Assembly: GCA_964365905.1 (NCBI GenBank)
Contig: CAYIRQ010000001.1
Coordinates: 1-39,692, forward strand
DNA: 39,692 nucleotides
Source of the DNA: an uncultured Candidatus Peribacteria bacterium
GTDB taxonomy: Bacteria; Patescibacteriota; Gracilibacteria; Peribacterales; Peribacteraceae
Direction: 5' to 3'
The first letter of the stretch is position 1, and the number at the start of each line of letters is the position of its first letter. The position numbers and the translations under genes were made by a program. The notes beneath the pieces are model-generated. The model did not search any database and was not told the DNA's origin. It worked only from the letters and a program-made list of their open reading frames with translations. Below, piece after piece: positions 12,036 through 22,119 of this stretch.

Positions 12036-13913
12036 ATGCAGCTCATGATCCCTCTTTCCGGGCGATGGAAGGTTCTCCTCGCGGCTGCAGTCCTCATCCT
12101 TCTCATTCTCGGGGGGACGTTTTTCTTTTTCCGCAACGGCAGGAGCTCGGGTGACTTAAGGCTCGCGCATCTCGAGGGCATCGCCCGCATTCTCGAAACG
12201 TATCGCGAGAGAAATGGCTTCTACCCTCAACCCGCCGCCCGCATGGAGACGCTGGAGGGAGTGAAACATGTCTGGGGATATCGAAGCAGCCGCCCGGCGC
12301 TTGCTTCCTGCACCGTGAAGATGATGGACGGAGTCGTGGACCCCGAATCTTCTGCGTGCGGAGGAGAAATCTATGACGTCGAGGGCAACGTCATTGGCTG
12401 GAAGGGGACGATCGCGCTCGAGAGCGCGGGGAACAGCGTCGAAGTCGCGGGGAGAGAAGGTCGTCTCGTCGCTCCCCTCGGAGACATGCTGAACGCGCTC
12501 CCATCAGATCCCGGTTATGGCTCCACTCCTGATCTTACGAAGTACGGATTCGGGGAATACATCTACGCCGTGCGCATGCCGGAGGATGGTGCAGTCGGCA
12601 AGGGCGGCGCCCAATACCAACTTGCTGCGACCGTGAGGGATCCCGCGACCGGAACCCTCAGAACCTTCATCCGCGGGGATTACTTCGTGCGTTCCGAGGA
12701 ACGGGGGACGCTCCCTCCTTCCCTCATCGGACCGGGCATGCTCCTGAATGAAAAGGGAGAGCCCGTGGGAGTCGCTCCACTCCACGTTCTCATCGATACA
12801 CAGGCGCAAGGGTATCCGAATCCCCTCCTTGGGGAAGGAGAACATGTGCTCCGGCAACTTTCCGTCCATGGCAAAGCGGATGTTCTGCAGAATGTTCTCG
12901 AGCGACGTATTGAACTCCTCCCGCTGCTTCCGGAAGGCTCCGCGCGCGAAGAACTTTCTTCCTCACTCTCGACGCTTGATGATTCCGTAACCAATCTCCT
13001 CACGACACTAACGGAAAAAGAAGCCGAACCGGTTCAGGCGGAAGGTCTGAGTCGCTCAGAAGTGCAGGTGAATGAGCTTGCGATGAATGCGGAACTGGCG
13101 CTTGCAACCTATCTTTCTGCGGTGGCGGAAGAAGCCGAGCAGATGCTTATTGCCGAACGGGACGAGCGATCTTCGCATGTGGCAGCGCTTTCGGGAGCCC
13201 TGCTTGCACTCCTTGATGTTGAGAAAGACGCGCTCTTTGCCCGCGATGAAATCCTCAAATATCTCGATGGAGAGGGTATCGAAGAGCAGGCGCGGAGTCG
13301 CGCCGGACGCAAGATCGAGAACGCGCTTGCGGGTATTCCGGATTTTTCTTCTCAGCGACTCTTCCTCACGGAGGAAGCGGAGAAAGCCATTCAGGAGCTT
13401 GGGGAAGTCGAGGGTGAAGCCCCTGCCACATCTGCATTCTCCGGGGGCACCACGACGCAGACCACCCTCATTCCCGCCGTTTTTGCGCTCACGGTGTCGC
13501 AGGAACTTTCCGTTCTTCTCAGGGAATTGCGCGGCATCCTGCGCGATATTCAGGAGGATCTTCAGAATCCCTCGATTCCCATGGAGGAACTGGATGATGC
13601 CATGCGAAGGCTTTCACGAGCCCTTCGCAGCGAGATGGAGCGCGTCGAAGGATTGCTCAGAGAACTTGCACCGGCGGAGAATCTCTCATCACTTCTTGCC
13701 GCATTCCAAACGGAGCGCGCTTCTCACGCATCGCTCGCTCTCGCTCATCTCTCGAAAGCAATGAAACTCCACGGGCACTTTGCTCCACTCCTGTTCTCGA
13801 AGGAGCGTCTCGAAAATATCGTTCTTCGGGGGCAAACGGGAGTCCCGGATGTATCCGCCTATGAACATCCTGAGGAAGCCGAATACCAGGGCATTCCGTA
13901 TCCTTTACCTTAA
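12036..13913 (+). CDS. membrane-anchored hypothetical protein (pilin-like head without a prepilin motif, acidic coiled-coil tail)
   Basis: 625-aa ORF with an N-terminal TM segment (WKVLLAAAVLILLILGGTFFFF). This is followed by …RLAHLEGIARILETYRERNGFYPQP…, a pseudopilin-like phrase. The C-terminal half is rich in E, L and A. Its stop overlaps the ROK start (TAATG). Confidence 0.65.
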   Translation: MQLMIPLSGRWKVLLAAAVLILLILGGTFFFFRNGRSSGDLRLAHLEGIARILETYRERNGFYPQPAARMETLEGVKHVWGYRSSRPALASCTVKMMDGVVDPESSACGGEIYDVEGNVIGWKGTIALESAGNSVEVAGREGRLVAPLGDMLNALPSDPGYGSTPDLTKYGFGEYIYAVRMPEDGAVGKGGAQYQLAATVRDPATGTLRTFIRGDYFVRSEERGTLPPSLIGPGMLLNEKGEPVGVAPLHVLIDTQAQGYPNPLLGEGEHVLRQLSVHGKADVLQNVLERRIELLPLLPEGSAREELSSSLSTLDDSVTNLLTTLTEKEAEPVQAEGLSRSEVQVNELAMNAELALATYLSAVAEEAEQMLIAERDERSSHVAALSGALLALLDVEKDALFARDEILKYLDGEGIEEQARSRAGRKIENALAGIPDFSSQRLFLTEEAEKAIQELGEVEGEAPATSAFSGGTTTQTTLIPAVFALTVSQELSVLLRELRGILRDIQEDLQNPSIPMEELDDAMRRLSRALRSEMERVEGLLRELAPAENLSSLLAAFQTERASHASLALAHLSKAMKLHGHFAPLLFSKERLENIVLRGQTGVPDVSAYEHPEEAEYQGIPYPLP

Positions 13914-14785
13914 TGTCCTCCGTCATTGGGATTGATCTCGGCGGAACGAAAATTCATGGGGCGCGCTTTGATGCAGAAACATTTGAGGTACAGGCGGAAG
14001 AGCGGGTCCCAACACATGCGGAGCAGAAATTCGAGCATGTGCAGAGAGACATGCTCGGACTTGCGCGACGTTTAAAGACAGAAGATACCGTTGCGGTTGG
14101 CATGGGCGTTCCCGGCCTTGTGGGGAGAGGCGGTGTGATTGCAACATTGCCGAACATTCCGGGTGCCGAAGGAGTCGCGCTCGCTTCGAGCTTTGAGAAA
14201 GAACTCCGGCTCCCCGTGATCCTCGAGAATGATGCGAATTGCTTTGCGCTTGCGGAAGCAGCGCACGGAAGCGGGAAAGGTCATGACATCGTGATCGGCA
14301 TCACGATGGGAACGGGGGTCGGCGGGGGCATCGTCATTCATGGGGAACTTTTTCGCGGCCACCACGGATTTGCGGGAGAAATCGGGCACATGCTTCTGAG
14401 GCCCGGCGAGCCGCCGTTTAGAGCACACGATCAGCGCGGGGACGTCGAACAGTTTCTTTCGGGAACCGCGATGGGAAAGCGGTGCGCCGAAGCAAAAAGA
14501 CCGAAGGAATATCTGGAAGGAGAGGCATGCGCGTTCCTGCATCCGCAGCTTTTCCGCGAAATCGCGTGGATGTCGGTCAGTCTCACGCACCTCCTCGATC
14601 CGAGCATCATGATCTTCGGAGGCAGTGCGGGAAATCCTCTGAAACCGCATCTTTCTGAAATTCAGAAAGAAATGGAGCGATGGATTCTCCCCGGCACCCC
14701 GTTGCCGAAACTTGCAGTTGCAACCTTTCGACGCGCCGCGACGCGCGGTGCGGCGATTTTGGCGCTCAGGAAAGTGTCGAAATAG
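13913..14785 (+). CDS. ROK-family sugar kinase (glucokinase-like)
   Basis: Motifs include VIGIDLGGTKIHGA…, GVPGLV, ENDANCFALAEA, GITMGTGVGGGIV and GFAGEIGHM. The usual CxCGxxGCxE zinc motif is replaced by RAHDQRGDVE. Confidence 0.85.
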   Translation: MSSVIGIDLGGTKIHGARFDAETFEVQAEERVPTHAEQKFEHVQRDMLGLARRLKTEDTVAVGMGVPGLVGRGGVIATLPNIPGAEGVALASSFEKELRLPVILENDANCFALAEAAHGSGKGHDIVIGITMGTGVGGGIVIHGELFRGHHGFAGEIGHMLLRPGEPPFRAHDQRGDVEQFLSGTAMGKRCAEAKRPKEYLEGEACAFLHPQLFREIAWMSVSLTHLLDPSIMIFGGSAGNPLKPHLSEIQKEMERWILPGTPLPKLAVATFRRAATRGAAILALRKVSK

Positions 14786-14835
14786 AGCCAAAAACGTGCT
14801 ATACTGCATGGATATACCTACACCAAAAATTTCTC

Positions 14836-16425
14836 ATGCGTTGGAGAAATATCCTCCTCTGCGCACTCCTCCTCCTCCCGCTCGCCATTCTTCCCGCTCA
14901 TGCCGGGGAGGGTACGCATCCTGCGGTTCTCCTTCGAAGGGTCATTCCTACGGAAAAACCAAAGGAGGCGAAAAGCAGAATCACGTTCACCGACGGATGG
15001 CGGAGGCCCCATTCGATTCGATCGCATTTCCGTGATTCCTGGCATCGGTCGCGGGGCGTGGACATCCTGGGAGCGGAGGCCGCTTCTGCATCGAGCGTGT
15101 ATGGCGCTGAGCTCTCCCGTACGCAACGTCTCGCGAACCTCGTGGATCTCATCAATCAGAATTTATTGCTCTCCGTCTCGTTCGTTCTCGCGGCGGTCGT
15201 CATCTCGGTTCTTGGAACACGTTCGAATCTGCGCCGAAAATGCACCACGATGATCTGCGTGCTCGAGCGTGTCATGGTCCCGCTCGACAAGCATTTCCAG
15301 CACGCGCGCCTCCTCCTTCGCTTCTTCCTCCTCGCATCGGGTATGGGAGTTCTTTTCTGGCTCACAGCGGTCTATGCGGCCGCGGAGACAGCGGTTCTCG
15401 TAAACACGGAGGCCTTTTACCGCATCGATGATCTCGACACCGGGGCGGATGTACAGCTCAAGTTTGGTGATGTCGTCAATGAGCAACTCAATTGGGAACG
15501 AGCGACGGGCCGCTTCCGCTTCACGGATGACCTCTACATCGAGGGGAATCTCGAAGTTGCGGGGACACTGTCCGGATCCTCGACGATCACGCTGAGCTCC
15601 CTCAAGGGCTGCGACACGATCGATACCACGATCAACGGTGTGCTCACGTGCGGGACGGATGCAGGGCCAGGCGCCGCCGTGAATATCCAGACCTTCACCG
15701 CAACAGGGACATGGACAAAGCTAACGCCGGCGCCGACGGTCACGCGGATCCAGCTCTGGGGTGGCGGCGGATCGGGCGGACGAGGCGGCAGTGCCGATGC
15801 CGGTGGAGGCGGAGGCGGCGGGAGTTATCTCGATGTCCTTGTTGCGACCTCCACACTCAGTGCCACAGAAACCTGTGGGGTCGGACCGGGAGGCGCTGCA
15901 GCAACGTCGGATGAACAGAACGGCAACTGGGGAGGGCAAACGACATTCGATGTCTATCGGGCGTATGGAGGTGGTCCCGGTTTCGGCGCAACAAACACGA
16001 ATGGTGGCGGTGGTGGTGGCGCTTGCCCGTTTGCAAACGGAAATATCGGCACGGCGTCAGCCGGCGGCACCGGAGGGTGCGGGGCGGCTGCCGGTGTGGA
16101 TGACTATCTGGGAGGAGGCGGCGGAACCGTCAATGGCGGAGATAGTGGGACAGGGGGCGGCGGAGGAGGACTCGGCGTCACGAGCGGAACCGAGGGTGCA
16201 GGGGGGAGAAGCATCTATGGAGGTGGTGGCGGTGGCGGCGCCGATGGGGGTGCCACGCCCACGTCGGCTGGCGGAGATTCTCTCTATGGGGGTGATGGTG
16301 GAATAGGTTCAACGGCAACCACAGTAGCGACGAATGGCGCTCAGCCGGGGGGCGGCGGAGGCGGTTCGGAATCAGCGAATTCCGGTGCCGGGGGCGCCGG
16401 AAAATGCATCATCACGTCGTGGTGA
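14836..16425 (+). CDS. multi-TM surface protein with a C-terminal glycine-rich (ALK/LTK Gly_rich-like) domain
   Basis: The ATG at 14836 gives the signal peptide MRWRNILLCALLLLPLAILPAHA|GEG. The ORF-track start at 14680 overlaps the ROK gene. There are two further TM segments, then a LKFGDVVNEQLNWERATGRFRFTDDLYIEGNLEVAGTLSG module. The tail reads FTATGTWTKLTPAPTVTRIQLWGGGGSGGRGG…GGGGGGG…. Confidence 0.7.
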   Translation: MRWRNILLCALLLLPLAILPAHAGEGTHPAVLLRRVIPTEKPKEAKSRITFTDGWRRPHSIRSHFRDSWHRSRGVDILGAEAASASSVYGAELSRTQRLANLVDLINQNLLLSVSFVLAAVVISVLGTRSNLRRKCTTMICVLERVMVPLDKHFQHARLLLRFFLLASGMGVLFWLTAVYAAAETAVLVNTEAFYRIDDLDTGADVQLKFGDVVNEQLNWERATGRFRFTDDLYIEGNLEVAGTLSGSSTITLSSLKGCDTIDTTINGVLTCGTDAGPGAAVNIQTFTATGTWTKLTPAPTVTRIQLWGGGGSGGRGGSADAGGGGGGGSYLDVLVATSTLSATETCGVGPGGAAATSDEQNGNWGGQTTFDVYRAYGGGPGFGATNTNGGGGGGACPFANGNIGTASAGGTGGCGAAAGVDDYLGGGGGTVNGGDSGTGGGGGGLGVTSGTEGAGGRSIYGGGGGGGADGGATPTSAGGDSLYGGDGGIGSTATTVATNGAQPGGGGGGSESANSGAGGAGKCIITSW

Positions 16426-16464
16426 TCGGGTAAAAATGATAGTTGTCTTCGGGAGAGAAGTTCC

Positions 16465-17595
16465 TTAGTCCTTCGTCTCCCAATTGAGCTCGATGAACCC
16501 GGCGTCTGCGAACTCGTTATTGAGTCCGGAGCCAGAGGCCGTCATCTTGAGGAGGAAGGTCATGTAGTCGTCCGCAGTGAAGGTGCCGCTGCTTTCCGGG
16601 CCCGTGATCGTTGCGATTTGCCAGTTCGCGCCCGTGAGGCCCGACCCGCCCGAGAGCGGAACAATGGTGTCATTGGTATCCAGAAGCTTCACGTTGAGCG
16701 AGCCGCCGGAGCCTCTGTAGCTAAACTGAATCGGCTTCACCGGATCCCAGCTGCGGAAGGTATTGGGGATCCGCACCTGCGTCGCGATCCAATACTGCTG
16801 CGCGGTCGTCTTCGTCGTCTGCCAGCGGTAGTAGTTGATAGAACTTCCAGAGCTATAAAGCGCGGAGAGCGTTCCCACTTTGCTCGCGCCGCTCCCGAAG
16901 TACGTGGCATTCGGGTACGTGGGCTTGAGCCAGACGATGGATCCGCTGCTTGCGCTTCCGCTCGTCCAACTCAGCTTCCCGGTCGAAGGATCCACGGAGA
17001 GGAGCCTGCCGGACGCTGTGGCCGCGCTTTCCGGCCATGTGTACTGCACGTTATTGAAGGAGGTTGCGCCATCGAAGGAGACGGCGCCGCTCGCGGAGAG
17101 GTTGCCGGTGATCCGGAGATCATCGGAGAATTCAAATTCGTTGAACGTATCGGAGAACTTCAATGTCTTATTACCGGCATCATTCCCAAATGTGAGTGTC
17201 GCATCGGCGGCAGTTTGATCGTCATTGATCGTGAGATCACTGTCCGTTCGCACGGCTCCTGAAGCAGTGAGAGCCCCGTGGACATTTGCTCCCCCATCGA
17301 CCCTCAGAGAGGAACCAGAAAGAGATCCCTGAACTGAAAGGTCATCCGTCAATTCAAAGCGTCCATTGTCACGATGCCATAGAAGTTTCTCATTGAGCAC
17401 TTCACCGAAACGGAGTTCTATTGGTGTTGTCCCATCTCCTTCACCAACGTAGTCGAACGACTCGTTATTCACGAGGAGAGTAGTTGCCGAGAGAGCTTGC
17501 AGTGGAAATCCACCGGCGAAAAGTGCAAGAGCCGCGGCGGATCCAATCCACCGACAAACGTTATCGCTTTGCCGTCTTTTTGTCTGTTTCTTCAT
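16465..17595 (-). CDS. secreted surface protein, paralog family member
   Basis: The ATG at 17595 gives the signal peptide MKKQTKRRQSDNVCRWIGSAAALALFAGGFPLQALSA. It contains the module LRFGEVLNEKLLWHRDNGRFELTDDLSVQGSLSG. Its C-terminal domain is homologous to the C-terminus of the 1026-aa ORF. Confidence 0.7.
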   Translation of the reverse strand: MKKQTKRRQSDNVCRWIGSAAALALFAGGFPLQALSATTLLVNNESFDYVGEGDGTTPIELRFGEVLNEKLLWHRDNGRFELTDDLSVQGSLSGSSLRVDGGANVHGALTASGAVRTDSDLTINDDQTAADATLTFGNDAGNKTLKFSDTFNEFEFSDDLRITGNLSASGAVSFDGATSFNNVQYTWPESAATASGRLLSVDPSTGKLSWTSGSASSGSIVWLKPTYPNATYFGSGASKVGTLSALYSSGSSINYYRWQTTKTTAQQYWIATQVRIPNTFRSWDPVKPIQFSYRGSGGSLNVKLLDTNDTIVPLSGGSGLTGANWQIATITGPESSGTFTADDYMTFLLKMTASGSGLNNEFADAGFIELNWETKD

Positions 17596-17669
17596 GTTTT
17601 TGGTATTCCGAATAGTATAGCATGAACTCGTTCTCTCGTGCGGGGTCATATGATGGGTTTGGAAAGACG

Positions 17670-20600
17670 TTACTGTACGGGCAGCTCCACGAAGTCGAGC
17701 GTGAGATCGCCGGTGTGCATCTGGAAGTTATCCTTCGCATACATTTTGAGCTTCACGAGGAAGTCCTGTCCGGCTGTCCATGTCGGAGACCCTCCGAAAT
17801 TGAGCGTCGTCGTCGTCCAGCTCGTGCTTGCGAGGCTTGTGGAGGGACCCCCCGTGAGCGTGACCGGAGCACCATTCGTGTCGAAGACGGAGATATCCAT
17901 CTTGTTGTTGGCGGTGTCCACCGAAGTCGAGCGGTAACTCACTTTGAGCGCGCCGCTTCCCCAGCGCACAAACTCAGGGGAGAGCGTGATGCGAATGGAA
18001 ATGTCGTAGTCCTGGAGAGTCGAGGATGTGCTCGTCCAAAGGTAGTAGTTCCGGAGCGTGATGTTGTCGTGCGACACATACATGCGGCCGACGTTATTCG
18101 TCGCGTCGCCCTGATAGCTCGCGTTCTGATGTTCCGCATGGTAGATCTGCTGCATGGTGCGCTCGCGATCGTCGTTCGTGAGCACGCGCTTATCGGTCAC
18201 CGTCTGGAGACCACCTGCCTGCGTCGTGACTTCCGCAAGCGGGATGTAACTCTCGTCGGTCGGGTAGGTGGACAGCCGCGCCGTGATGCCGCCGGATCCG
18301 AAGAAGATGTAGTTCAAGGCATTATTTGTGAGCGAAAGATTTTGGCCGGAGAAACTGCGGTTATTTCCCGCAAGCCGGTAATTCCCCGGGTTCACCTTCA
18401 CCGTAAGACCGCCGCCGGAGGCGACTTTGAGCGCACCCGTGAGCGTCCGAAGGTCGATAGTATTAATGAGACCGGAGACCGTCAGGCTCCCCGTGACGGT
18501 GAGATTCCCCTGAATGCGCACGTCGTCATTGAAGTTGAATCGGTCGTTTGCGATATCGAAGCTGAACATGTTCGCGATGGTGCTCCCGAACTGCAGACCG
18601 ATGGAGCTCCCTTCCGAACCATCCGCATCGATCGCGAAGGTTCCCCTGTTCGTTCCTGCCGGGATAGTGCTTACCGGCAATAGTCCCCCGCTCCCAAGGA
18701 CGGCAATGGAGCCGCTCGCCGTCCCCGTATCGTGCTTATCGAGGAGATCGGCATTGAGCGCGAATGGCACCGAGAGCACCGGTGAGCGGTCGACGGTGTC
18801 GCTGCTCGTGTTGACATCGAGGAGCTCGTAACTCGTGTCGGCCGCCGCCGAGGCTTTCACTTCGACCTGCAAGAAGAGATCTGTCAGTGTGCTCGTATCC
18901 ATTGTTTGGAAATTGAGAAGCGCAGTGACGCTCCCGAGGCTGACCGAGAAGTAGCCTTGGCTGTTCGGCGTCACCGTATGCACCTCCTGCCAGCCGGCGT
19001 AGTTTGAGGATCCGGTGTTGATGGCGCCGGTGCCGGTTGTATCCGAGGAAACATAATCCGCGCTCTTCCATTCGCTGAAGCGGATCGTATGCGGCGTTGT
19101 CACTGCCGTCCCGTTACTTGTGAGCAGGTGTCCGTGGTAAACGTGCTTCTGCGGAACCGTGACTTCCGCAAATGCCAGCTTGCTCTTGCCGAGGGTCATT
19201 GCAGCAATTCCCGTGAGAAGGAGCAGGAGCGTGAGATGCGAACGTGTGAAGGATCCACCATTCGGTCCTTTTCTCCCGGAAACGTTCTTGCCTCTCATTC
19301 GTCGAGCAACGTTGCGCATCCTTTTTTGTGCGCTCTCGCGCGTCGGCTTGAACGCGAGGAGAATCGCAATGAGGAGCAGGACGAGCGCGAGCAGAATGTT
19401 GCGCTGCAGGAGCAGAGTGTTGTATGAAGTCTCCGGGGCGGGAGAACCGCCGTACGCACCCGCTCTTGGAGTGCCAAAGATGTCCGTTCCCCCAGAGCGA
19501 TGCCAGGCATCCTGGAATCTATTGCGCATGAGGCTCTGCACCGGGCGATGCCACGCATCGAGATAGCGCATCCCATTTGCACCTCTCCTCTGAGACGGAG
19601 CAACCTTGGCGTTGCTTCGCTTGGGTTCGACTTTCTTCGGCACCGGTCTCCCGATGAGTCCTTCTTTCGGAATTCCTGGAGGAGCAGCGACTGGTGCGGC
19701 GGGCGCTGCGGGACGGGGTGATGGCGTCTGCGGCGCCTTCGGTGGTTGAGGCGTAGGAGCCGGGGGGGGCTGTGACGGAGGACTGCCTGGAACCCGCCTG
19801 CCGCCGCCTCCAGGTGATTCGTTGCCTCCGTTGCCACCAACACCTGTTCCACCGCCTCCACCACCCACACTGCCTCCACCGCTCGTTCCATACGGCAAAC
19901 CCGTCACAATTTGATAGTTCGCACCCGTGACGGGCAGATTGAGATCGGTGATCCCCGCTTCCTCCAGTTTGTAATTCGCGCCGATCTTCGCGCTTTTCTC
20001 CACGTAGTCTGTGACATCCCCGTACATGCGATAGTTCGTGCCTTCTGCAGCCTGCGCTTCTCCGGGGTTTGCAAGAAAACCCGCCGCAAGGAAGGTGAGG
20101 AAAACGAGAGCAAGCGTACTCATCCCGCTTCCCCCCGCATCGTTTCCTTTCTCCACTGCCGTCTGCTTTTTCTCCATCTGCATCATCCAATGCTTCAGTG
20201 CCTCCTGCGTCATGCGCATTTCGGAGGCGATCAAAACGTTCGTTACGTCATGCTCGCAAACTTTCACAGCGTTGCACCCCGCTCTCTTGAGCCAATGAGA
20301 AGGCGTGTCACCGAAGAAGAATCCATGCCGACGGATAATGCGCCCGATGGAGGACGCGGAGAGCGTGACGCCGTGCTCTCTCCTCAATTTCTCCCGTATG
20401 CGCTCACGACTCATCTTCGGGTCCGTCGTCCGATGGTTTCGAATGATCTCAATGACTTCCGGCGATGCTTCCGGTTGTCTCATTGTTCGTGGTCGCTTCG
20501 ATCGGTCCTCGAGCGTCGAAGGATCCGATGGATCAAATCGCTTCGCCCAGCGATTGAATGTTGCCGGTGTGATATCAAACGCTTTGCATGTCCTGCGAAC

Positions 20601-20750
20601 ATTTCCACACTCGAGCGCATATGCAAACCATCGCAATCGCTCTTGAGCAGATGTGCTCAGGCTCAGAGCATTCGCCCTTTGGATCAGTCTCCTGATGTCC
20701 TCAAGCGAAGCATTCTGCCTCTCAGGCTTTTTATTATTTGTATTATCCAC
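17670..20750 (-). CDS. large surface protein; longest ORF has an IS481-like transposase HTH N-terminus in frame (alternative start 20123)
   Basis: 1026-aa uninterrupted ORF. Residues 1-150 are HTH-like (…CGNVRRTCKAFDITPATFNRWAKRFDPSDPSTLEDRSKRPR…IIEIIRNHR…SASSIGRIIRRHG). Residue 210 onward gives MSTLALVFLTFLAAGFLANPGEAQA (signal/TM), then a Gly/Pro-rich linker, a WHR motif, two TM segments and a beta-rich ectodomain of about 550 aa. Confidence 0.7.
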   Translation of the reverse strand: MDNTNNKKPERQNASLEDIRRLIQRANALSLSTSAQERLRWFAYALECGNVRRTCKAFDITPATFNRWAKRFDPSDPSTLEDRSKRPRTMRQPEASPEVIEIIRNHRTTDPKMSRERIREKLRREHGVTLSASSIGRIIRRHGFFFGDTPSHWLKRAGCNAVKVCEHDVTNVLIASEMRMTQEALKHWMMQMEKKQTAVEKGNDAGGSGMSTLALVFLTFLAAGFLANPGEAQAAEGTNYRMYGDVTDYVEKSAKIGANYKLEEAGITDLNLPVTGANYQIVTGLPYGTSGGGSVGGGGGGTGVGGNGGNESPGGGGRRVPGSPPSQPPPAPTPQPPKAPQTPSPRPAAPAAPVAAPPGIPKEGLIGRPVPKKVEPKRSNAKVAPSQRRGANGMRYLDAWHRPVQSLMRNRFQDAWHRSGGTDIFGTPRAGAYGGSPAPETSYNTLLLQRNILLALVLLLIAILLAFKPTRESAQKRMRNVARRMRGKNVSGRKGPNGGSFTRSHLTLLLLLTGIAAMTLGKSKLAFAEVTVPQKHVYHGHLLTSNGTAVTTPHTIRFSEWKSADYVSSDTTGTGAINTGSSNYAGWQEVHTVTPNSQGYFSVSLGSVTALLNFQTMDTSTLTDLFLQVEVKASAAADTSYELLDVNTSSDTVDRSPVLSVPFALNADLLDKHDTGTASGSIAVLGSGGLLPVSTIPAGTNRGTFAIDADGSEGSSIGLQFGSTIANMFSFDIANDRFNFNDDVRIQGNLTVTGSLTVSGLINTIDLRTLTGALKVASGGGLTVKVNPGNYRLAGNNRSFSGQNLSLTNNALNYIFFGSGGITARLSTYPTDESYIPLAEVTTQAGGLQTVTDKRVLTNDDRERTMQQIYHAEHQNASYQGDATNNVGRMYVSHDNITLRNYYLWTSTSSTLQDYDISIRITLSPEFVRWGSGALKVSYRSTSVDTANNKMDISVFDTNGAPVTLTGGPSTSLASTSWTTTTLNFGGSPTWTAGQDFLVKLKMYAKDNFQMHTGDLTLDFVELPVQ

Positions 20751-21057
20751 GTTGTGAAGCCATGAAATTGATGTGTATTTCCACAGATCATTCTATCATA
20801 TTTTGCAACATTGCGCTTCCCTCTCTTTGATTGTTTGCTTGCTTTTTTGCATGCAGGATGGACAGGAGATTCTGGCTTTCTCAAAAGACTTTTCGATTTT
20901 CGACTTCCATCTTTCTGAACATTTCTCTTTTGAGACTGTCTCTGCAAGGTTTTCAAGAATTCGTCTCTCTCTGAGCAGAACTCTCCCCTCTATCGGACAT
21001 TCATCTCCCTGTGTACAGACGTTGCTCATCTCTCTGCTCAAAGCTACTCTTTCGCCG

Positions 21058-22119
21058 ATGAGACAGTTCTTCTCCGGGTTCGCGGTTCTCCTGGTCTTGA
21101 GTATTTTTTCTCCCCCTGCGTTTGCGCAGCAGTCTTTTACAGACGTCCCTCAGGATCATCCCGCCTATGCCGCGATTGAACATCTCAAGTCAATCGGTGT
21201 ACTCCAAGGGTATCCCGATCCCAAAGCCCTAGGGGCTCCCCTTCGGGGAGGGGACCCTTCGGGTCGGACATTCCAGCCGGACCGAACGGTGAATCGTGCG
21301 GAGGCAACGAAGATTATTGTCGCACCGAGAGCCACTGCCGATGCATTGGCAACGTTCACCACATCTCCGTTCATGGATGTCCCCGAGGGAGTGTGGTATC
21401 TCCCGTACGCCGAAATGGGACGACAGGTTTTTGGATTTCTCGACGGGCCGCCGAAGAGGATGAAGTTCGAAGGCGAACGTGGTGTGCAGAAGGTGGAGTT
21501 CCTCAAGATGCTCCTCACGACCTATCAGGTGGATACCTCCGCATTCAGCGAGATCACGTTACCACTTGCGAGAGATGTCACGGATGCAAACGCGTGGTAC
21601 TACCCGCACCTTCGCTACAGCCTCACGGCTTCGATGACGATGGTTGGGAATGACGGGCTGCTTTCCCCTGCGAAACCTCTCACGAGGGGAGAGGTTGCGC
21701 TGCTCCTCTACCGGTTCCTCATGTACCGCGAGAATCGCAGAACGCAGGCGCTCCTCTCTGAGGCCGAGCAGGAAATCGTCCGCATTCTCGATGCCCTCGG
21801 GAAGAATGATATTCTGCAGGCGGAATACGCATCCGCACGGGCACTCCTCGCTTCCCGCGGCGCCCATGCGAGTCGTCCGGATACTCCCCTTGTGAAAGCT
21901 GCACTCAAGGTGACGGAAGCATTCCGCACGCTCGTGCGCGCGTATCGCGCGGGCCTCAACAAGGATTTTAACATGGTCATCGAGCTCACGAAGCAGGCAT
22001 GGACGCTCTCCAATCAGGCACTGGAATACAGTGCGGACATGGGGCCCATCGTCGAGCAGCTCCAAGCAAGCGCGCATGCGATGGCGGAGAGCGCAAGATC
22101 TCTTGGAAGGAAACCTTAA
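21058..22119 (+). CDS. SLH (S-layer homology) domain protein
   Basis: The ATG at 21058 gives the signal peptide MRQFFSGFAVLLVLSIFSPPAFA|QQ. An SLH repeat follows: SFTDVPQDHPAYAAIEHLKSIGVLQGYPD…FQPDRTVNRAEATKIIV, plus two degenerate repeats. The ORF-track start at 20773 adds 95 implausible residues. Confidence 0.75.
   Translation: MRQFFSGFAVLLVLSIFSPPAFAQQSFTDVPQDHPAYAAIEHLKSIGVLQGYPDPKALGAPLRGGDPSGRTFQPDRTVNRAEATKIIVAPRATADALATFTTSPFMDVPEGVWYLPYAEMGRQVFGFLDGPPKRMKFEGERGVQKVEFLKMLLTTYQVDTSAFSEITLPLARDVTDANAWYYPHLRYSLTASMTMVGNDGLLSPAKPLTRGEVALLLYRFLMYRENRRTQALLSEAEQEIVRILDALGKNDILQAEYASARALLASRGAHASRPDTPLVKAALKVTEAFRTLVRAYRAGLNKDFNMVIELTKQAWTLSNQALEYSADMGPIVEQLQASAHAMAESARSLGRKP

Follow-up and report, generated by a model that had tools for sequence, protein, structure and literature searches.

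The window analysed here comprises 39,692 nucleotides of contig CAYIRQ010000001.1 from an uncultured Candidatus Peribacteria bacterium, a groundwater organism whose small genome is assembled as 1.21 Mb in 119 contigs. It contains three adjacent genes, termed A, B and C, that encode proteins with a common small module and probably represent tail-fibre-like surface fibres, in which a conserved proximal module is combined with exchangeable glycan- or ligand-binding tips (Table 1). The open reading frame (ORF) positions of all three agree with those in a first-pass annotation of this DNA. Translation of B from an upstream ATG (17649) would extend the protein to 394 aa, and a promoter-like site is located at 14777-14805, upstream of the ATG of A.

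Table 1. Positions, within the window, of the three genes, their domains and the divergent neighbour (TM, transmembrane segment; HTH, helix-turn-helix; CBM, carbohydrate-binding module; AF2, AlphaFold2; pLDDT, predicted local distance difference test; a slash marks the putative cleavage point)
Feature	Position	Strand	Description
Gene A	14836..16425	+	529-aa ORF; signal/TM1, Trp/His/Arg loop, TM2, signal-peptide-like TM3, module, Cys junction, Gly_rich_2 tip
A, Trp/His/Arg motif	14983..15075	+	Predicted extracellular loop; common to C
A, third hydrophobic segment	15250..15384	+	Basic n-region, ends VYA/AAE directly before module; signal-peptide-like
A, shared module	15388..15585	+	BLASTP, profile, shuffle test
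A, Cys-x-Cys-GTD junction	15586..15699	+	Homology to orthologue P0186 stops just past it; tip-swap boundary
A, Gly_rich_2 (PF21722) tip domain	15700..16416	+	38.5 bits, cut-off 24.3
Gene B	16465..17595	-	376-aa ORF; Sec signal peptide, two modules, junction, C-terminal jelly roll
B, module copy 1	17302..17484	-	Begins at predicted mature N-terminus (ALSA/TT)
B, module copy 2	17080..17256	-	AF2: three β-strands, pLDDT 88-91
B, C-terminal β-sandwich, CBM-like jelly roll	16468..16920	-	Paralogous to C-terminus of C; AF2 pLDDT >90
Gene C	17670..20750	-	1026-aa ORF; HTH, TM1, Gly/Pro loop with Trp/His/Arg motif, TM2, internal signal peptide, ectodomain
C, N-terminal HTH_28/HTH_32	20280..20651	-	Like IS481 transposase N-terminus; no DDE domain
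C, Trp/His/Arg motif	19476..19568	-	TM1-TM2 loop; common to A
C, internal signal-peptide-like segment	19167..19319	-	Ends LAFA/EV
C, N-terminal ectodomain, β-sandwich	18852..19145	-	Most conserved part, 56-67% identity in family
C, shared module	18465..18662	-	BLASTP, profile, shuffle test
C, domain homologous to cyanophage A-1(L) long tail fibre gp34 shoulder domain	18168..18431	-	Profile against PDB 8kec_A
C, C-terminal CBM-like jelly roll	17673..18161	-	Paralogous to C-terminus of B
SLH-domain protein	20773..22119	+	Divergent neighbour, conserved partner of the C-B pair; PF00395, E 2.7e-10; synteny

A lineage-restricted module shared by A, B and C

The first-pass annotation had proposed a module of about 40 aa common to the three proteins, placed in two of them directly after a signal peptide or the last transmembrane segment, and had recognized no named family for it. 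All-against-all alignments of the three proteins confirm the similarity and set the length of the module at ∼60 aa. Using BLASTP, A and B align over 110 aa with 35% identity (E 6e-15), A and C align with an E value of 3e-8, and B and C yield a single alignment that spans the module through to the C-terminus (E 2e-14). As compared to 300 composition-preserving shuffles, the Smith-Waterman scores of all module pairs are significant, with z = 8.6-23.8. B carries two copies (residues 38-98 and 114-172), the first of which directly follows the signal peptide. The proposed placement also holds for A, where the module is located directly behind the last hydrophobic segment, and in C the module lies ∼170 residues past this segment. 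A profile built from the four copies matches only A, B and C in the 1.21-Mb genome, and the invariant F-G, F and D-D columns of the module are retained in 53 homologues. The absence of a named family was likewise borne out, as the module is not covered by any family in Pfam, NCBIfam or PHROG, including where a protein repeats it five or six times, and a search of the module and the B family against PDB sequences gave only noise, with no solved structure matched.

The suggested profile search was carried out against 1.84 billion representative proteins and matched 1,084 clusters at E ≤ 1e-3, with 459 of these at E ≤ 1e-10. With ∼1,100 clusters, the module represents a domain definition that is missing from the databases. 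The names attached to the homologues are Candidatus Peribacteria, Peribacterales, Peribacteraceae and Peregrinibacteria. In the Peregrinibacteria/Peribacteria class, the module was found in 68 of 201 genomes, usually in several genes clustered on one contig, and the remainder of a 301-genome sample of the phylum contained one borderline match; the module is nearly confined to this class. No relatives were found among IMG/VR viral contigs.

Module architecture was assessed in the best 138 of the 1,084 module-bearing representative clusters. The first copy begins at a median of residue 41.5 and falls inside the first 70 residues in 99 of the 138, with a hydrophobic N-terminal segment preceding it in 89 of those 99. 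Most of these proteins carry 2-3 copies, and a local re-count gave a maximum of 14; in the library search, 38 matched stretches were found in one 6,674-aa protein. Other module-bearing proteins contain additional domains, including collagen repeats, BclA_C, Mtd_N, CBM_5_12 and F5/8-type C, several of which are elements of trimeric fibres. Another Peribacteria genome encodes two further such proteins of 801 and 1287 aa (L001, 13430-21669, minus strand), located ∼2 kb from its C-B pair. Both carry the module right behind the signal peptide together with other fibre-like repeats (motifs such as ...RIGIRTTAPDNPLEVVG...), and a 579-aa polytopic membrane protein adjoins them.

An AF2 model of B, calculated from a 53-sequence alignment, has a mean pLDDT of 76 and predicts that each module forms three short β-strands (pLDDT 71-91) with extended segments behind them. 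In 44 of the 53 members of the B family, the sequence between one module and the next matches the β-helix repeat of Bactofilin (PF04519) at or near threshold, with scores of 25.7-41 bits that mostly lie at or below the cut-off. B from the window itself has no match at E < 1 (gathering score 27.9 bits) and was rejected as a bactofilin. While bactofilins are cytoplasmic, polymer-forming proteins, the B family is exported, and the match reflects a shared solenoid repeat rather than a shared function. Because of the modelled strands and the bactofilin-like spacers, the module is read as a stalk-building unit, in which a β-meander would be followed by solenoid turns, and it would mark the mature N-terminus in most members of the family.

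Distal domains, tip exchange and selection

The C-terminal domain that the first-pass annotation had described as common to B and C is equally well supported, with z = 18.6 for this domain alone in the same shuffle test. In both proteins it is confidently modelled as a β-sandwich (pLDDT >90), for which the best fold matches are galactose-binding-like jelly rolls, namely CBM61 (TM-score 0.51-0.58 on the target), CBM22, CBM4, Cry toxin domain III and the domains at the C-terminal ends of tailspikes and fibres from Klebsiella phages. A Foldseek search with the domain of B also returned the Eph ligand-binding domain. No Pfam carbohydrate-binding module matches either jelly roll, and the likeness is at the level of the fold only (TM-score on the target 0.48-0.58, E ∼1e-4).

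Ahead of its jelly roll, C contains a middle domain that is homologous to the shoulder domain of gp34, the long tail fibre protein of cyanophage A-1(L). A profile of the C family aligns residues 774-861 of C with residues 59-149 of 8kec_A (E 5.9e-7), which is also the top Foldseek match of C (E 3.6e-6). The gp34 shoulder domain is trimeric and anchors the A-1(L) fibre to the baseplate (PMC10966104).

A ends in a different tip. Its residues 289-527 pass the gathering score of Gly_rich_2 (E 1.7e-9; Table 1), and these C-terminal 240 aa share their ...GKCIITxW ending with relatives. Few relatives match A over its full length, and the tip by itself occurs widely. A PDB search with the Gly-rich tip gave no match, and the papers retrieved on PF21722 were confined to plants. 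The nearest relatives of the tip, ∼52% identical, stand on unrelated Asn-rich proteins that lack the anchor and module of A, whereas in A the tip is grafted onto a Peribacteria anchor plus module.

The distal domains were proposed to have been swapped, and this part of the first-pass annotation stands. In the closest relative, L013, the gene at the position of A (P0186) has retained the anchor, module and Cys junction with 59% identity, and its tip is unrelated. In other genomes the N-terminal ectodomain and module of C are joined to other distal parts, and all of the B/C domains are absent from 79 of the 138 module proteins examined. From this evidence, tip exchange at a boundary after the module and its junction is real. 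The anchor of A (residues 1-184) was found in 1 of 80 other family genomes, and its sole paralogue in its own genome is C; as judged from these sequences, A is a lineage-restricted chimera of the C membrane anchor and the module.

A paralogous family with exchanged distal domains is thus upheld, whereas the accompanying proposal of a local expansion driven by diversifying selection does not apply to B and C. The order of a divergent SLH gene followed by C, with or without its HTH, and then B was found in all five inspected family genomes and on two other contigs, and C is present in all 11 family genomes tested. Across most genera of the family the C ectodomain is 53-55% identical (46% in one), as compared to 62-71% for tyrosyl-tRNA synthetase (TyrRS) in the same genomes. 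Ratios of nonsynonymous to synonymous substitution (dN/dS) were calculated against L013, in which B is 77% identical; since synonymous sites are almost saturated at this distance (pS ∼0.65), the ratios are approximate. B has a ratio of 0.108 and the end of C one of 0.067, next to 0.101 for the neighbouring ROK kinase, 0.20 for the anchor of A and 0.16 for its module. B and C are therefore under purifying selection with housekeeping-like values of ∼0.1, and diversifying selection on them was rejected on the basis of dN/dS and their near-housekeeping identity. Taken with the synteny and conservation, these values show that B and C are an old, conserved and slowly evolving pair and not a recent expansion. 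Since this pair extends across the lineage, it is part of a lineage-wide, predicted surface apparatus, not of a fast-evolving local expansion.

A 99%-identical strain from Hainich groundwater (L014) has only seven nucleotide differences from the window in 6.5 kb, all of which fall in the tip of A (15900-15920, plus strand) or the junction of B (∼16921-17079, minus strand). The differences in the A tip comprise three nonsynonymous and no synonymous changes inside six codons, and the ROK gene, an upstream gene for a 625-aa protein and the end of C are identical between the two. This pattern is suggestive, but so few differences can bear little weight.

Membrane anchors, export signals and the HTH domain of C

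Signal peptides and cleavage motifs were read from the sequence itself. The basic n-region, h-region and A-x-A motif of type I signal peptides can be recognized in B, in A and, at an internal position, in C. B has a standard Sec signal that ends directly ahead of its first module. A and C instead carry three hydrophobic segments each, with basic residues after the second and before the third, and this distribution of charge would place the Trp/His/Arg loop between the first two segments outside the cell and the short basic loop inside. The Trp/His/Arg segment is itself shared between A and C (BLASTP E 2e-7, z 15.7), and C is the only other match to the A motif in the genome. In C, the loop between TM1 and TM2 also contains a low-complexity poly-Gly stretch followed by a Pro-rich one (19656-19898, minus strand; PPSQPPPAPTPQPPKAPQTPSPRP...), which is probably an extended extracellular spacer.

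Among 38 homologues of C, the third segment has Ala at position -1 in 36 and Ala or Val at -3 in 35, and a Lys/Arg-rich stretch lies ahead of these positions. In two homologues the protein starts exactly at this internal signal peptide. By analogy to the conserved C-family site, the third segment of A also looks like a signal peptide that would be cleaved. The long ORFs of A and C may encode precursors from which cleavage would release a secreted fibre and leave a membrane hairpin. The homologues of C fall into three length classes (∼570-660, 750-830 and 930-1050 aa), and in one genome the hairpin, consisting of two transmembrane segments and their loop, is a separate ORF. For these reasons, C is best seen as a fusion of three units: an HTH domain, a membrane hairpin and a secreted fibre.

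The HTH region covers the first ∼160 residues of C and scores above the gathering thresholds of PF13565 (HTH_32; 45.4 vs 33.7) and PF13518 (HTH_28; 28.3 vs 25). C was tried as an IS481-family transposase (NF033577) and rejected, since it reaches 77.1 bits against a cut-off of 224, covers only model positions 2-116 of 284 and has no rve/DDE match. The same HTH domains occur in ∼21 of 120 C homologues among the matches listed. In 12 genomes, 8 of the 11 HTH copies found are fused to, or located directly upstream of, module-bearing genes, among them the genes for a 4126-aa protein and for a B-like product of 430 aa. Copies were located at 20241-20750 (minus strand) in the window and at G135:C5:147846-148061, G072:C33:26514-26738, G135:C7:80771-81235 and G184:C2:83744-84217 in other genomes. 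The association between the HTH and module genes is robust across Peribacteria and suggests a domesticated domain that is functionally tied to the fibre family. Together with the conserved internal signal-peptidase site, the recurrent fusion of a transposase-derived HTH is the most unusual feature of the locus and hints at an unusual precursor or signalling design.

Candidate surface fibres and competing explanations

Members of the candidate phyla radiation (CPR), Peribacteria among them, are presumed to live attached to other cells, and to our knowledge few of the molecules that mediate such contacts have been described. The conserved three-gene locus of SLH, C and B, with its clear boundary for tip exchange, provides concrete candidates for attachment or envelope architecture. 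In the explanation we favor, and hold to be probable, the proximal part of each fibre would consist of the shared module, a three-stranded β unit followed by bactofilin-like β-helix turns, which could be repeated to lengthen the stalk. Just behind the module and its junction motif would lie the exchange point, followed by a distal ligand-binding domain, which is glycine-rich in A and a CBM-like jelly roll in the other two proteins. B would be secreted via Sec with the module as its mature N-terminus, and A and C would be precursors in which a membrane hairpin, its Trp/His/Arg loop lying outside the cell, precedes the fibre. Their fibre part would start at the signal-peptide-like third segment, which would either anchor the fibre or be cut by signal peptidase. 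The fibres would probably be trimeric, sit at the cell surface beside the co-conserved SLH protein and bind glycans, either on a partner cell, in which case A, B and C could serve in host attachment, or on the cell's own envelope. Peribacteria have been described as encoding S-layer proteins as well as large extracellular proteins with a presumed role in attachment (PMC4736985).

The mosaic adhesive trimer (MAT) fibres of Bdellovibrio bacteriovorus (Caulton et al. 2024, PMC10769870) serve as a working analogue. Both are families of secreted fibres, and the MAT producer lives on other cells (PMC10769870). Both also appear to combine a conserved β-rich element that directly follows the signal peptide and is presumed to tether the fibre to the surface of the producing cell, with a β-helical stalk, freely swapped C-terminal tips and phage-like parts. 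The families are nonetheless distinct. MAT fibres have a single N-terminal domain of ∼130 aa rather than a repeatable module of ∼60 aa, they come from a host lineage outside the CPR, and they lack the design seen here, with two members behind a transmembrane hairpin and one of these fused to an HTH. Against the MAT N-terminal model (NF053851, Bdello_MAT_N), C scores only 14.3 bits (E 0.026, cut-off 60), in residues 574-641 and off the module, and A and B have no match. The Pfam scan of A, B and C also found no Peptidase_S74 chaperone/protease, the hallmark of the S74 subgroup of MAT fibres; the NS74 subgroup instead has a trimeric β-prism stalk and a tip. While modular bacterial surface fibres with phage-like parts are already known, the unnamed and lineage-restricted module family, the SLH, C and B locus and the hairpin/HTH precursor design are new.

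Several points weigh against the surface-fibre explanation. The structure models are of monomers, and a bactofilin-like β-helix can be formed by a single chain. The jelly-roll matches are weak (Foldseek E 1e-3 to 1e-6, TM-score ∼0.4-0.58 on the target) and uninformative on the ligand, and we infer the cleavage of C at its internal signal peptide by signal peptidase from sequence motifs. Finally, B and C are so strongly conserved that an unchanging ligand or a structural function is a better fit than host recognition that varies.

This last point leads to a possible, though rather unlikely, alternative in which B and C are not partner-cell adhesins but part of the envelope itself, building, spacing or anchoring the S-layer and wall as stalks that connect membrane, wall polymer and SLH protein, and binding the cell's own surface polysaccharide. 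The kept gene order, the presence of C as a core gene in every family genome tested and an evolutionary rate near that of housekeeping genes would all fit, and surface polysaccharides are a heavy investment of Peribacteria, which also encode S-layer proteins (PMC4736985). A structural role sits less well with domains of the type found in phage receptor-binding fibres, and the free exchange of tips among relatives would be unusual for a purely structural lattice component. In addition, the proposed interaction with the SLH protein is drawn from gene neighborhood.

Less likely again, but compatible with A, B and C being surface fibres, is a signalling role, in which C and its HTH-fused relatives would be membrane-tethered one-component regulators whose cytoplasmic HTH would control transcription according to what is bound by the fibre or loop, in the manner of ToxR or CadC. 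Like those factors, C has a predicted cytoplasmic DNA-binding domain at its N-terminus, transmembrane segments and an extracellular part, but ToxR and CadC use an OmpR-type winged helix in place of the transposase-type HTH_28/HTH_32, and C has three hydrophobic segments and a fibre as its extracellular part. The HTH is in frame with C here and recurs beside module genes elsewhere, as described above, and its identity between genomes of 42-55% tracks that of the ectodomain, which argues against a recent insertion sequence remnant. On the other hand, the HTH is a separate ORF or absent from the locus in some genomes, it has no known DNA target, and errors in gene calling or assembly could account for some of the fusions in draft metagenome-assembled genomes. 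The conserved signal-peptidase site would also part the fibre from the membrane portion that bears the HTH. A more specific version seems to us similarly doubtful: a composite precursor, encoded as one, two or three ORFs depending on the Peribacteria genome, would join the HTH, the hairpin with its Trp/His/Arg loop and a fibre ectodomain with its own signal peptide. Provided that these parts remain together once signal peptidase has cut, the fibre would dock on the loop, and partner contact could be relayed to the HTH. If true, this would be a contact-sensing, membrane-tethered transcription switch that combines a phage fibre with a transposase domain that has been domesticated.

The phage-like parts could also be the leftover tail-fibre genes of a prophage, tailocin or other mobile element, which we consider highly improbable. 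Phage fibres and tailspikes are similarly modular, with a conserved proximal and a variable distal part. C resembles several of them through its shoulder homology (A-1(L) gp34, PDB 8KEC) and a jelly roll similar to lectin-like tailspike ends (Klebsiella phage K2-2 TSP and Kp7 gp52), and an IS481-like HTH stands at its N-terminus. However, the locus is flanked by tyrS, a ROK kinase, a transketolase and the divergent SLH gene, a chromosomal, housekeeping and non-phage context with no virion genes nearby and no capsid, tail, integrase or DDE domain. The core pair is kept beside the SLH gene across genera under purifying selection, and the viral contigs of IMG/VR yielded no relative. Moreover, the proteins carry Sec signals and transmembrane segments, which virion fibres lack, and the solved phage fibres have no counterpart of the shared module. 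An origin as a phage virion or tail module was rejected on the same evidence of housekeeping neighbors, conserved chromosomal synteny and lack of IMG/VR relatives. Lastly, A, B and C are rich in Gly, Ser and Thr, but a chance or low-complexity likeness deserves almost no credence and is refuted by the BLASTP results, the shuffle z scores, the columns invariant over 53 homologues and a profile that recovers only these three proteins in the genome.

Two further observations concern the neighboring genes. The 625-aa protein encoded upstream of the ROK kinase (12036-13913, plus strand) has an N-terminal transmembrane segment and no Pfam match, and its gene keeps its position in the relatives L013 and L014. 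In three related genomes, TyrRS gives a two-piece match within one longer ORF of 464-529 aa (G082:C1:207506-208804, G135:C5:47214-48533 and G163:C4:91108-92394), as compared to 397 aa in the window, which suggests an insertion of ∼50-130 aa in the enzyme of those genomes.

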